Part shown: positions 546 through 49,357 of the stretch, piece by piece
How the letters are laid out: every line of letters starts with the position of its first letter
Position numbering within the stretch: the first letter of the stretch is position 1
Assembly (NCBI GenBank): GCA_964016885.1
Contig: OZ024741.1
Coordinates: 336,908,001-336,972,000, forward strand
Length of the DNA: 64,000 nucleotides
Direction: 5' to 3'
Source of the DNA: Eledone cirrhosa
Lineage: Eukaryota
The notes under the pieces: model-generated
Told to the model about the DNA's origin: nothing
The model's database searches: none
What the model saw: the letters and a program-made list of their open reading frames with translations, nothing else
Made by a program: the position numbers and the translations under genes

Positions 546-643
546 TTATATATATATAGTTGTGTATAATGGTAGCTATGGTGCTTCCGTAGGCGGTGTG
601 CCAAAATTAGCACTCGATATTCAGCAGAGTAGAGTGTAGATAG

Positions 644-959
644 TATAAAGAAAACGAAAAATCAGTGATGCATCTGGACTTAGTTTATTGCGTATTACAA
701 ATGTTTCGCCGGCAGGTAGCTTGAGACATGGTCCTTGTATGGATCTAGCTGATTCTACTTCTGCGGGTTCTTTCAGACACGAGTGTTTCGTCTGGATAAA
801 ATTTGCTCCAGACGAAACACCCATGTCTGAAAGAACCCGCAGAAGTAGAATCAGCTAGATCCATACAAGGACCATGTCTCGAGCTACCTGCCAGCGAAAC
901 ATTTGTAACACGCAATAAACTAAGTCCAGATGCATCACTGATTTTTCATTTTCTTTATA
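644..959. mobile_element. Fold-back element (about 153-bp arms, 10-nt loop) carrying the 3' half of a hammerhead; probable Penelope-like inverted pLTR remnant
   Basis: Arms 644-796 and 807-959 are near-perfect reverse complements, which explains the twin ORFs 621-824(-) and 803-1078(+). The centre reads gtctgga-taaaatttgc-tccagac-GAAAC-acccat-GTC. Flanked by (TA)n/(CA)n. Confidence 0.65.
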
Positions 960-2037
960 ATATATATATATATATACACACACACACACACACACACACA
1001 CACACACACACACACACACACACACACACACACACACACATATATATATATATTGATAATCAAAAGATATTGCATTAGATAATTCAAGTGTATAATTATA
1101 TAAAACAAGAAATATCTTAAATACTTTTTTAAAAATTGATTAAGAAAGAAGACAAAATAATTTAATAACAACAAGAGGTTCACAAAACAGTTGTATATAA
1201 ACATTGAAGTGTTGAAATTAATCAAACTATGAAAACTGTATGTTTTTAACTTCATCTTTCTTTCACAATATTTCTAATATATAATAAATAAAGGATAACA
1301 TAATCAAATTAAGATATTGATCTTCAAAGAAATGTAGCTTAATGAGAAAAGAAAAATATATATATATAAAATGTTTTCAAAAACTGAGAAAGGCTCCATT
1401 AATCCTGACACAGCTCCTATAATTTGATCTAATCTGCCAGTGTAGTCTGCAAAGGATTTCACACAAAATGGTGAAGTTTTGAACCTCCGTCGGTTCTAAT
1501 GAGGAGTTTTTCAGTTGTTTGATCAATCAATTGAAACAGCCAACTCATAGAATGTAAAATAATCGTGATAATTATTCACTTTGTTCTACACAAGGGGTTT
1601 TCACCCTTTTTTACATAATTGCGGCACTTTCACATGGAAAAATTTTCCACCTCCCGCTTGTGTAGTAAATATTCAAAAGCATACCAAAAATATTTAATAA
1701 AAGTTTGTTACTGGTTTGTTATTCCTGATTTTATTTTTATTTTTCTATACAGGTTTTAGCATATCTCCTTTGAATATATTTTTCAGGTGGCATATGTTGA
1801 AATACCTTCTTAATACTCAAAATCCTATATCGTCCACCAAAATTTCCAATCTGCCACCCTTTTCTATTCAGTTGCTCATTCCCACCTAACAGTTTAAACT
1901 TGTCACTGGTGGGTAAGATTACCCAAGTTGGGAAACCCTGATTTACATCAACATGATGATATCATGAGGCATTACCACTTTGTTGTAGACCAACATAGTG
2001 ATATCATGAGGAATATATACTTTATTTATCTGTGTGT

Positions 2038-2260
2038 TCAACCCTTTCACATTTAAACCAGCTGTATCCGGCCAGAATTCCCTTCCTGTTGAGACTGGAT
2101 GTAACAAGCCACTTATACCAACGTTAAGTTATTGTTCTCAAAATAAATATTAACATCATCAAAATCTTATAAATTCAATATTATGTGAGATAATTATGTG
2201 AGATAAAGCCTTTACCACAAAAATACAATAGTAGAGTAATGTAAATCGCTAAAGAGTTAA
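2038..2260. mobile_element. piggyBac-type MITE
   Basis: tcaa-cccttt ... aaagag-ttaa ends. Inverted homolog at 29290-29505. Confidence 0.6.
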
Positions 2261-2479
2261 ATGTTTTCACTTTCTTACTAATCATGTTTATGGAAGTAAA
2301 TGTAATCTGCATGCCACCACCACCACAACCATAAATGAAATTTCAGAGTCAGTCTGCCTCATGGTCCTAGTCAACTGGATGGAGAAGACATTGCCCTTCA
2401 GGATGGCAAAGGAGACATAATGGAACAGCCATTCCACCTTGCGAGGCTTACACCTGTGTGTAGCCAACTCTACTCTGAT

Positions 2480-47100: not shown

Positions 47101-47199
47101 ACTTTGCTTGAGACACATTGTTTACATGTATTCATAAATTGGAGGTAGATATCTATAAAATGAAGGGGAGAAAGTTTGAAGAGTTTGATGGAAATAGCC

Positions 47200-47950
47200 A
47201 TCATCTGTATTTTCCACTGTTGGATAATATCTTAATTGATGGAAGTCATTGAATTTCTATAGATGTTATAGACATTGTTTCATGCCTGTTCAGTTACACT
47301 GCTTCCATGTTGGAACCACACTTGTGTGATATTAAGTTGTGGGCTTTGGCATTATAAAGGATCTTGGGGATCGTACCTAAGAACCTAGTATCAGTCCCCC
47401 TTTCCTTTCTATTGCCTTGAATGCATCAGCGGTGATGTGAAGCATATACCTGCTGCCAGTAGTCAATGTAGACTTGATAAATTTCCAACAAGATTGTTAT
47501 TTGATATGAAGTGCTCGAGATTTATTGGGCAGGGGCTGTTGTTTTGTTAAGATGGCATGGATTTAGTTGCCTTGATTAGGCTGTGGTCAGATGATCCTAC
47601 ATATGGGAGAAGAGACTCTGTTGGCAGGGCAAACAGTTTGGTTGTAAGGGATGAGAAAGTGTCTAGAAAGATGGTGGCTTGACCATGGGTACGGGTAGAT
47701 GAGGAGACTAAATTGTGTAAACTGTTCAGTGAAACAGTGGAAAATGATTTAGATTCCACATCAAACAGTATTGGAGTATTGGTGTCAGAAGAATAAGAGA
47801 TAAACAGAGAGAAGTTTTGAGCATTGATGTTATTAATAATGTTGGATTCAGGCAGATTTATGTGCAGATATCTTCACTGCATGATGAAAAATAGTCAAAC
47901 AACTGCTTATGGCTGTGAAGGTTTGAAAAGCGGTATATACACATAACATA
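47200..47950 (-). mobile_element. Highly decayed non-RTE LINE (CR1/Jockey/I-like) endonuclease region
   Basis: ORF 47547-47759: LHNLVSSSTR...LDTF...VGSSDHSLI, matching the APE SDH motif. Boundaries uncertain. Confidence 0.55.
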
Positions 47951-49237
47951 ATGGAGCAGTGCGACTTTTAGTCAGAGTAACTGAAAAATTGCTATAGATT
48001 ATAAAGATACTTTCAGCTGGAACTGAGAGTACCAGAAATGGGCATCTATCCAAAGTTATGGACCCTCTCTATCATGACTTTGAGGCTCTAGGTTAGTCTT
48101 TGGCCTTTGTTAAGAAAGGAGGTGGGATGGAGCACAAGACTAACAACCTTACCTCCCTTAATCAAAATTACAACAGAAATGATGAGTAGATCCCTGACTT
48201 GGGAATAATCCCATAGCAAGTCTTGCCATGTAGAAGATAGATCTCTTATCACAGAATGCTTCATAGGGAGCAACAGGAACAAAAGAAGATAAATATATTT
48301 AAAATACTAGAAAAGTGAGATTTTTGGTGAGGGGAACTGAAAGATTTTCATTGGTCTCCAGGAAAGAGAGCTGAGTAGTAGGAGTATACAGCATTTGGGG
48401 TGGAAGCTAGAATATAATAAAGTGGATAAAAAAGATGTTTATGTTACATAGGATTATGAAATAACAGATTTATGTGCATAAGTGAGTAGAGCACCTGCCA
48501 CTAACAGGGGAGAAATATGTATATATATTTATGTATGAAACAATACATGCATAAGTGTATATATATATATATATATATCGACAGTCAATCAACTTTCGTC
48601 AAATTGGACAGAGAAAACAATGCTTCCATTGGTTTTTCCAATTGCTTGTGTGTGTGTGTGGGGTGTAACAATGTTTTAATTTTGAAGATTCCTGTTAATA
48701 CTCTCTCACACTCACACACACATATAGGGGAAGGTATGTATGTCTGTATCTATGTATATATTTAGATAACTTCAGATGCAAATAGCTTGCTTGTATGCGT
48801 GTGTATATGTGCCTAGATCAATAAAAATCGTATCCTAACCAATAACTCATTAAAGACTTTTTTTAAAGTTCATGACGTCTGGGACAAATCTGCCATTTAG
48901 AGTTTCATAAAACTTTGGATGGTTATCAACAATAAGTTGATGAGAGGGGGGTCAAAGTGAAAGTGAAAATAGATCATAGATTTTCCATGGAAGCTGACAC
49001 ACTATAGCACATACTAAAACAATGTTTGTGTTTGCACACATGAACAAATAACACATCATCATATGTGTGTATGTGTGTATGTGGGTATGTGTGTGTATAT
49101 GTGTGTGTGTGTGTGTGTGTGTGTGTAGATGTATGTATTATGTAGTTATGTAATAGTTATATAGTTTCTGGGTTATTAAAACATTTTGTTTTGAACTATT
49201 AAAATTGAAACACACACACACACATATATATGAGTCC

Positions 49238-49357
49238 TGGGTTCAATCGAGGGTAACCATAGTAAGTAAGGTACTAAATACATTAGTAGAACATATACAA
49301 AATTTAATAAAGAAATGGCTTCTACAGGTCTAGAACTGTTTCATTCGAAGGAAATCA
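49238..49357 (-). mobile_element. Truncated second copy of the 42371 element (hammerhead lacking its 5' CTG and stem I)
   Basis: ggtaaccatagtaagtaaggtactaaatac...ttctacaggtctagaactgtttcattcgaaggaaatca aligns to 42385-42486, then is cut by (TA)n. Confidence 0.7.

Follow-up and report, generated by a model that had tools for sequence, protein, structure and literature searches.

Several otherwise dissimilar islands share an 11-nt motif in a 64,000-nt stretch of the genome of the octopus Eledone cirrhosa (GenBank assembly GCA_964016885.1, contig OZ024741.1, positions 336,908,001 to 336,972,000; hereafter the window), where they lie among (TA)n tracts. We propose, with a probability that we put at roughly two in three on the basis of sequence comparison, that these islands are 5'-truncated copies of autonomous Penelope-like retrotransposons (PLEs) of the Hydra clade, and that the motif is the 3' arm of a twin bulged hairpin that likely positions the reverse transcriptase (RT) at two internal start sites just upstream of the hairpins. 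The elements themselves are of a known kind; the structural signal is new and well supported, and the mechanism is likely.

Every island represents the 3' terminus of a family that is spread at high copy number through this 3.0-Gb genome, the insertions lying in (TA)n. At first look, candidate copies numbered 1582 for F1 (the family of the motif at 42404), 2632 for F2 (610), 4257 for F3 (9358), 1309 for F4 (33678) and 233 for F5 (41769), and 40 candidates were scored per family. The 3' ends are followed by TA-type repeats in 61 of 78 cases in F1, 43 of 76 in F2, 78 of 104 in F3 and 81 of 123 in F4; F5 copies end mostly in (CT)n or other repeats. [quoted passage not shown]

The ORF links carry Hydra-clade motifs in F1–F4 and in a further family, F6. 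RxRWR and [SA]DKT are present in F1–F4, and F6 has ADKT, its copy in locus L189, an open frame of 858 aa, reading RILWR. The CxCX5C linker, and CxxC and CxH around a conserved E and N, were recovered by pattern in F3, F4 and F6 and read from the translations in F1 and F2. Frames spanning RT to EN are seen in L338 (F1), L156 and L173 (F2), L238 (F3) and L379 (F4), with stops or frameshifts in most of them. No Pfam family passed for pieces of the PLE ORF, most homologs of which bear a precomputed PF26215 assignment, and no relatives were found in viral contigs. By diagnostic ORF motifs, hammerhead and (TA)n target, F1–F4 and F6 belong to the Hydra clade. Two PLE-like ORFs of other clades, met as bystanders at L349:3318-5400 (+) and L155:2977-3647 (+), combine RT with a C-terminal GIY-YIG-like domain and are useful as outgroups for the motif.

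An original prediction, made from the sequence of the window, had suggested multiple families of Penelope-derived elements that target TA microsatellites and, were the window typical, a very large genomic population. All of this is supported: longer copies reach the RT/GIY-YIG ORF, F1–F5 are each dispersed at high copy number, many 3' ends of F1–F4 run into TA-type repeats, and the pattern of the hairpin described below occurs 113,992 times genome-wide, compared with 488 times for a reversed control, in a search that leaves out F1. What is not supported is the description of the families as non-autonomous or retrozyme-like, because those at 42404, 610, 9358 and 33678 continue into a Hydra-clade RT/GIY-YIG ORF in their longer copies. 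The idea of F1 as a discrete non-autonomous unit was likewise rejected on account of long copies, 99–100% identical, that carry the 3' UTR and ORF. The suggested tie between families and autonomous PLE ORFs was made for F1–F4 and not for F5, where the only lead is a Hydra-type RT fragment that lies, in inverted orientation, upstream of a single copy (L139); the F5 sequence resembles F4.

The six 11-mers stand letter for letter at 610, 9358, 33678, 41769, 42404 and 49271, as had been predicted, each in a unique island of its own within or adjoining (TA)n. Taken as a bare 11-mer, the motif exceeds chance only in part. It is matched exactly at three sites and with a single mismatch at a fourth; the sites at 610 and 9358 have three mismatches each, a level at which the window holds 159 matches against 231 expected. 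The six sites are taken as real because of their hairpin context and not because of 11-mer counts. At five of them, 49271 being the exception, the motif is the 3' arm of one shared hairpin of the general form RCUC-stem-loop-stem-UY-GAGYRC, the 11-mer being its 3' half. In all window families this hairpin (hairpin 1) reads ACUC-upper stem-loop-upper stem-UY-GAGURC. With a covariance model built from metagenome loci only, these five sites rank 1, 3, 4, 5 and 10 among 13 window matches, although the E-values are weak (0.026–4.3). The site at 49271, a worn copy whose relatives have an intact hairpin, was not recovered by the model in the window. The second-best match of the model (35795-35831, +) lies at the end of a 19-bp tandem repeat outside (TA)n and is probably due to chance. 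Near-perfect foldbacks are present in three islands (637-966, 9077-9281 and 42437-42558), and F1 is young, the window copy being 98–99% identical to its relatives.

Genomic copies have two fixed 3' ends, a short end just before hairpin 1 and a long end just before a second hairpin. We predicted hairpin 2 just beyond the long end before searching for it, and then found it in F2, F3, F4, F6 and F8. It has the form GCUC...GAGCRC and lies 3–5 nt beyond the long end and 15–55 nt before the ATG, so that full-length copies usually contain two hairpins between hammerhead and ATG, in the order hammerhead, hairpin 1, tail, hairpin 2, ATG. The motif had been described as a shared terminal signal. It is shared, and lies 3' of the hammerhead, but is not terminal: the 11-mer is half a hairpin situated 50–72 nt inside the long end, with its twin beyond that end. 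The 3' arm usually extends to GAGYRCUY, near a self-complementary 8-mer, in all families, which could permit pairing between hairpins or between RNAs.

Evidence for the hairpin as a conserved structure comes from outside this genome. A profile from 25 homologs gave 76 metagenome loci (best 80 of 404 confirmed), which form 61 clusters at 80% nucleotide identity. The descriptor, fixed on the genome of the window, has 66 matches in the 14 kb before the ORFs of these loci, versus 31 in the interior of the matches (159 kb) and 22 in antisense sequence (245 kb). When sites were chosen by two words alone, in one locus per cluster and in the clusters with at least 100 nt upstream (n = 47), 52 sites were obtained in 33 clusters, 19 of which have two sites and 14 have one; the remaining 14 clusters have none. 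Twin hairpins are spaced 58–83 nt apart. With a 2-nt bulge the first upper pair is formed, and shows covariation, in 50 of the 52 sites (37 C-G, 13 U-A), compared with 0, 3, 7 and 18 for other bulge sizes and a shuffle mean of 30.6. In a pair count on 50 of the 52 sites, 96.4% of the cells are paired, with 35 double changes, a pair count that none of 500 shuffles equalled. The basal four pairs, G-C in the metagenome sites versus A-U in hairpin 1 of the window's genome, hardly vary within the metagenome set and were a selection criterion, so they prove nothing there. Flanks cannot be aligned between families, whereas both arms, the size of the bulge and the compensatory pairs persist, in two copies, in clusters less than 80% identical.

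The metagenome loci also yield element ends. Alignments of 3' against 5' repeats numbered 34, of which 16 stop at a contig end, 2 are uninformative and 16 are informative; among the latter, 9 ends fall 0–6 nt before the hairpin and 2 before a variant hairpin. Published Hydra consensi from corals and a sea cucumber carry the hairpin as well: by eye, in File S7 of PMC8557442, the ATG of Hydra-1_Ajap is preceded by both hairpins, hairpin 1 is present in Hydra-2_Ajap and Hydra-2_Amil, and the consensus of Hydra-1_Amil ends too early for a hairpin to be read (comparisons with published work, here and below, refer to excerpts of the sources cited). Four 9-nt words searched against the whole supplement of PMC8557442 gave 7 matches, of which 4 fall in these Hydra termini and the other 3 are dispersed among Naiad or Chlamys consensi, and therefore the motif looks clade-specific. 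No account of a conserved leader hairpin in Hydra elements turned up in literature searches, to whose scope subscription papers and Repbase did not belong.

For the window's genome the end map takes TA-flanked ends only, with overextension trimmed, and F5 is unusable in it owing to (CT)n flanks. The short-end mode lies before hairpin 1 by 5 nt in F1 (6 of 23), 4 nt in F2 (6 of 13), 6 nt in F3 (15 of 33) and 5 nt in F4 (17 of 27). The long-end mode lies 3 nt before hairpin 2 in F3 (35 of 42), F6 (4 of 4) and F8 (7 of 9), 4 nt before it in F2 (22 of 30) and 5 nt before it in F4. Head-to-head copies consist of an inverted arm that ends just before the hairpin and a main arm that continues to 50–72 nt behind the hairpin bulge. 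Two long ends were paired in only 2 of 91 head-to-head pairs from loci selected for a long arm. Bystander copies, which happened to lie in loci retrieved for other families, give an unselected sample: their 56 pairs comprise 30 long+short, no long+long, no short+short and 26 with at least one unclassified end, and their solo ends are 36 long, 14 short and 38 other.

At the other side of the insertions, 5' ends pile up upstream of or inside the hammerhead in F1–F4, at sites of the form YYA(+1)NW, which we take to be the initiator consensus. The 5' ends of F1 fall at two adjacent positions in 30 of 47 copies, 30 nt behind a TATAAATA; pile-ups in the other families comprise 18 of 67 ends within 9 nt (F2), 13 of 53 within 4 nt (F3) and 17 of 85 within 3 nt (F4), in sets partly selected by the queries, and further F4 peaks follow subfamily differences. 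F1 junctions run through hammerhead stem I homology, and a stall at stem I with snap-back is an equal reading of the F1 boundary. A cap-derived extra G at the 5' junctions was considered and rejected, as the G in F1 (25 of 28 non-extending copies) is explained by stem I snap-back and the query; in F3 an extra G at 5 of about 12 junctions is only a hint that we have not used as evidence. By a script criterion, a further unit is attached directly downstream in 10 of 25 F4 loci that were selected for hairpin 2, and 8 of these 10 joints begin within 1 nt of the AGTT pile-up site, which fits an RT that runs off the RNA 5' end and jumps.

Hammerheads were recognised by a descriptor scan and reading by eye; Rfam found none, nor any other family of relevance, in the window (E ≤ 1, among the matches listed) and in 15 loci at the gathering score. 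They lie in the pseudo-long terminal repeat (pseudo-LTR), sense to the ORF, the same build as in File S2 of PMC8557442. The original prediction placed the motif always 3' of the hammerhead, on the strand of the ribozyme. Within an element this rule holds; judged by proximity alone it fails, as the 33678 motif has the core at 33750 on its 3' side, although that core belongs to another insertion. In the metagenome loci the hairpin follows the hammerhead core by 44–66 nt in 36 of 61 clusters and lies within 160 nt before it in none of the 61. The islands at 33678 and 41769 have no hammerhead. In F2 the core is a variant, CUGAAAGA with an extra base, and one F4 copy, in locus L099, has a hammerhead of the U3-A8 form with a long stem III; covariation of U3-A8 hammerheads has been described (PMC4209133).

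We infer the following course of events. The RT/GIY-YIG protein, probably as a dimer, would bind the two hairpins on the sense RNA and cut both strands of a (TA)n target. One cDNA would be primed from each target end, starting a few bases upstream of each hairpin, and priming may often be helped by pairing of the TA end of the target with a UA run at the start site. Many cDNAs would run off the RNA 5' end, which a promoter in the pseudo-LTR would set. The two cDNA ends could then join via short palindromes to give small foldbacks, and some cDNAs may instead jump to another position on the RNA to give direct tandems. Full-length copies would need hairpin 2 behind the 3' repeat, through tandem read-through, a circle or an LTR-like jump; some 5' pseudo-LTRs are longer than 900 nt, a length compatible with a tandem or circular template or with upstream read-through. 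The broadest form of this account, in which a clade-wide twin RNA hairpin would load an RT dimer and fix both priming sites and, with run-off and template jumps, explain tails, foldbacks and pseudo-LTRs by one rule, is put forward tentatively, at a little under even odds.

A number of observations weigh against this account. In F1, the youngest family, the strict hairpin-2 pattern gave no matches, and the sole full junction has a plain 4-bp hairpin, lacking bulge and GAGCAC, 4–7 nt beyond the long end. Among the informative metagenome ends 4 of 16 fall elsewhere and 1 overshoots by 4 nt, and the 14 of 47 clusters that have no site by the word rule include, by eye, several with variant hairpins or with sequence that stops short of the ATG. 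Five word pairs in true ORF interiors also form the first upper pair, a small control that does not discriminate; the other 11 of its 16 sites are contamination, namely real leader hairpins in loci whose match spans the pseudo-LTR. By eye, the octopus consensus Hydra-1_Obim has no clear hairpin and the copepod Hydra-1_Crog has two variant forms in the published set (PMC8557442). Second short-end modes lie 8–12 nt before hairpin 1, at other UA runs, and therefore microhomology also shapes the short ends, blurring them by a few bases. Covariation fits RNA and single-stranded DNA alike and cannot tell them apart. Finally, we infer the start sites from sequence, and in the in vitro study of a Poseidon element the start sites were the same for both strands and priming required no homology (PMC11167929).

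Among other explanations, the leading one, which we still consider unlikely, would need only a single priming: a long cDNA would snap back and serve as its own template until it is stopped or trimmed by the hairpin, in the form of single-stranded DNA or of a recognition site for the endonuclease, so that the motif would act at the DNA level. Self-priming has been proposed for head-to-head Penelope insertions with palindromic junctions (PMC3846280), the tail of the D. virilis element is reported as needed for endonuclease recognition (cited in PMC11167929), and F1 junctions pass through hammerhead stem I homology. Long+short pairs are predicted by this explanation too, but it does not predict short ends that have no inverted partner, such as the 14 solo short ends among the bystanders, or short ends that close whole ORFs in direct orientation (L241, L258, L285); moreover, the long end holds its distance to hairpin 2 although long-end copies never copy that hairpin. 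Ranked after it, and improbable as well, is the explanation that the hairpins serve in the 5' leader to load a protein or to control translation, with the ends set by annealing of (TA)n to a UA run near the bound protein. It overlaps the twin-hairpin priming account, as the hairpins are protein-bound in both, and draws on the UA runs at most start sites (AU-rich at -5 to -9), on the second end modes at other UA runs and on the closeness of hairpin 2 to the ATG. However, the long end of F4 has no UA run in the template and still lies 5 nt before hairpin 2, and AU-rich families with many UA runs nevertheless have one long end, as the F3 mode illustrates.

Very improbable, in our judgement, is the original view of non-autonomous, retrozyme-like short elements that cleave, circularise and have a common terminal signal. 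F1–F4 continue unbroken into 3' UTR and ORF; the stumps lack hairpin 2, and many lack part or all of the hammerhead; by eye, neither F1 nor F4 shows a pile-up of 5' ends where cleavage is predicted; no array of tandem units, each with a complete type I hammerhead, is found in the window; and copies are solo or head-to-head. On the other side stand the large excess of short over long copies, the sharp 5' boundary in F1, the occasional two-unit direct tandems of the hammerhead unit in reads, the lack of an ORF link for F5 here and the description of animal retrozymes as PLE derivatives (bioRxiv 2026.07.22.740005). As for the motif being a functionless relic of common descent, one clade holds all the families, so some common sequence is expected; but a relic would hardly retain both arms, the size of the bulge and the compensatory pairs, twice over and across 61 clusters less than 80% identical, while the flanks become unalignable, and we give this explanation next to no credence.

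In L1 twin priming two primers arise from one cut, R2 jumps templates at the RNA 5' end, and in LTR retrotransposons strong-stop DNA is a short cDNA from a start near the RNA 5' end. Unlike in these systems, both starts would be fixed here, and both arms copy the same stretch of RNA. The closest known relatives are the Hydra-clade PLEs, which have a C-terminal endonuclease (EN+) and whose reported hosts include an octopus (Craig et al. 2021, PMC8557442). The elements of the window resemble them in the single ORF with RW[KR], DKT, YRDD, the CxCX5C linker, CxxC..E and CxH, and in the pseudo-LTR hammerhead, the (TA)n targets and the inverted 5'-truncated arms. They differ in the leader hairpin, which is not described in the excerpts of that paper; in tails of about 75–90 nt versus 30–40; in 3' UTRs of several kb in F1 and F2 versus whole elements below 3 kb; and in abundance, the clade being called small there versus more than 100,000 hairpin matches in one genome here.

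With Poseidon PAc of Anolis, studied in vitro (Frangieh et al. 2024, PMC11167929), two internal RT starts bound the tail, PAc cuts both strands, hammerhead cleavage is not needed and a dimer is predicted. Two internal starts bounding the tail and an AT-rich target are thus common to PAc and, as read here, to our elements; the cutting of both strands, the dispensable hammerhead cleavage and the dimer would be shared as well. PAc starts in an AC-rich stem loop within the ORF, with no target homology, and no conserved positioning signal is named in the excerpts of that study; the sites proposed here belong to the 5' leader, where each is closely followed by one of the repeated hairpins, and most of them coincide with UA runs. 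Head-to-head Penelope insertions (Arkhipova et al. 2013, PMC3846280) share the inverted pseudo-LTR, the tail, optional there, on one arm only, the palindromic junctions and the TATA and Inr-like sites in the pseudo-LTR; they are explained there by self-priming on an antisense template, whereas the data here fit two primings on sense RNA. The non-LTR retrozymes of animals (bioRxiv 10.64898/2026.07.22.740005) have a type I hammerhead and PLE pseudo-LTR ancestry in common with our elements, but form tandem arrays with a whole hammerhead per unit; the elements here are dispersed stumps of coding elements.

Table 1. Insertions, hairpins and hammerheads of the window.
Feature	Position	Strand	Remarks
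F2 head-to-head insertion in (TA)n	559..959		long arm - (~559-805), short inverted arm + (~806-959)
F2 hairpin 1, ACUC...UC-GAGUGC	610..635	-	3' arm is the 11-nt motif
F2 hammerhead-like core with one extra base, both arms	776, 827	-, +	
F3 head-to-head insertion	9018..9433		short arm - (~9018-9161), long arm + (~9165-9433)
F3 type I hammerhead cores, both arms	9114, 9244	-, +	
F3 hairpin 1, ACUC-CAG-loop-CUG-UU-GAGUGC	9348..9368	+	
Further hammerhead core-like sites	10150, 33750		
F4 stump	33643..33737	+	~19-nt inverted short arm, then hairpin 1, then tail
F4 hairpin 1, ACUC-UACU-loop-AGUA-UU-GAGUAC	33663..33688	+	
F5 solo long-end stump	41715..41843	-	older, 77-88% to relatives
F5 hairpin 1	41769..41794	-	1 mismatch in window copy; full pairing in many relatives
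F1 head-to-head insertion	42358..42553		long arm - (42359-42500), short arm + (42501-42553)
F1 hairpin 1, ACUC-UGC-loop-GUA-UU-GAGUAC	42404..42424	-	
F1 type I hammerhead cores, both arms	42490, 42505	-, +	
F1-related stump	49232..49356	-	hammerhead 3' half, worn hairpin 1 (motif 49271), long end
Hammerhead 3' half in the 49271 island	~49330-49356		
F8 foldback, a seventh site overlooked by the original prediction	49770..49908	-	hairpin 1 reduced to its last 7 nt (49816-49822)

Some further islands of the window are related in appearance. The TA-embedded island at 9906-10366 (-), which contains the hammerhead-like core at 10150, has no hairpin motif and one 88% relative, in L236, and is probably another PLE family. 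Two older hammerhead-like copies, at 33748-33880 and about 49600-49729 (+), are alike, resemble F6 and seem to end at the short end; the former is separate from the 33678 insertion. A head-to-head looking island at 41339-41652 and a half-hammerhead-like island at 55081-55182, both in (TA)n, have no relatives among the fetched loci.

The original prediction also placed the islands next to a neural protocadherin locus. The protocadherin-type ORF is real (55761-58259, +), a single open frame of 832 aa with five Cadherin domains, but the neighbourhood carries no signal, the hairpin pattern occurring about once per 26 kb genome-wide; the nearest motif site is 6 kb away, there is no sign of a link to the insertions, and we regard the proximity as incidental. 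The remainder of the window includes many copies of a tRNA-like short interspersed element (SINE) family (33880-34590, 27215-27640, 40948-41117, 51320-52540, 60400-60580), some in tandem with (ATT)n spacers, several RT fragments of a non-LTR retrotransposon at 12155-18600, presumably RTE-like (the longest, 16388-17701 (-), of 437 aa), and a 9-bp satellite of 151 copies at 20934-22287.

The origin of the tails, inverted arms and pseudo-LTRs of Penelope-like elements is a long-open question, and the sole in vitro study found two internal start sites without a rule for them; one hairpin per start, conserved across phyla, gives a rule that can be tested. Annotators can also use the hairpin to mark boundaries in a clade whose abundance here far exceeds earlier descriptions, and retrozymes are no longer needed to account for these islands. 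If the proposed mechanism is true, the pseudo-LTR would do, in telomerase's sister group, the work of the "R" region of an LTR, and the hairpin would be a portable tag of 20–25 nt for two-ended, RNA-templated insertion targeted to (TA)n.

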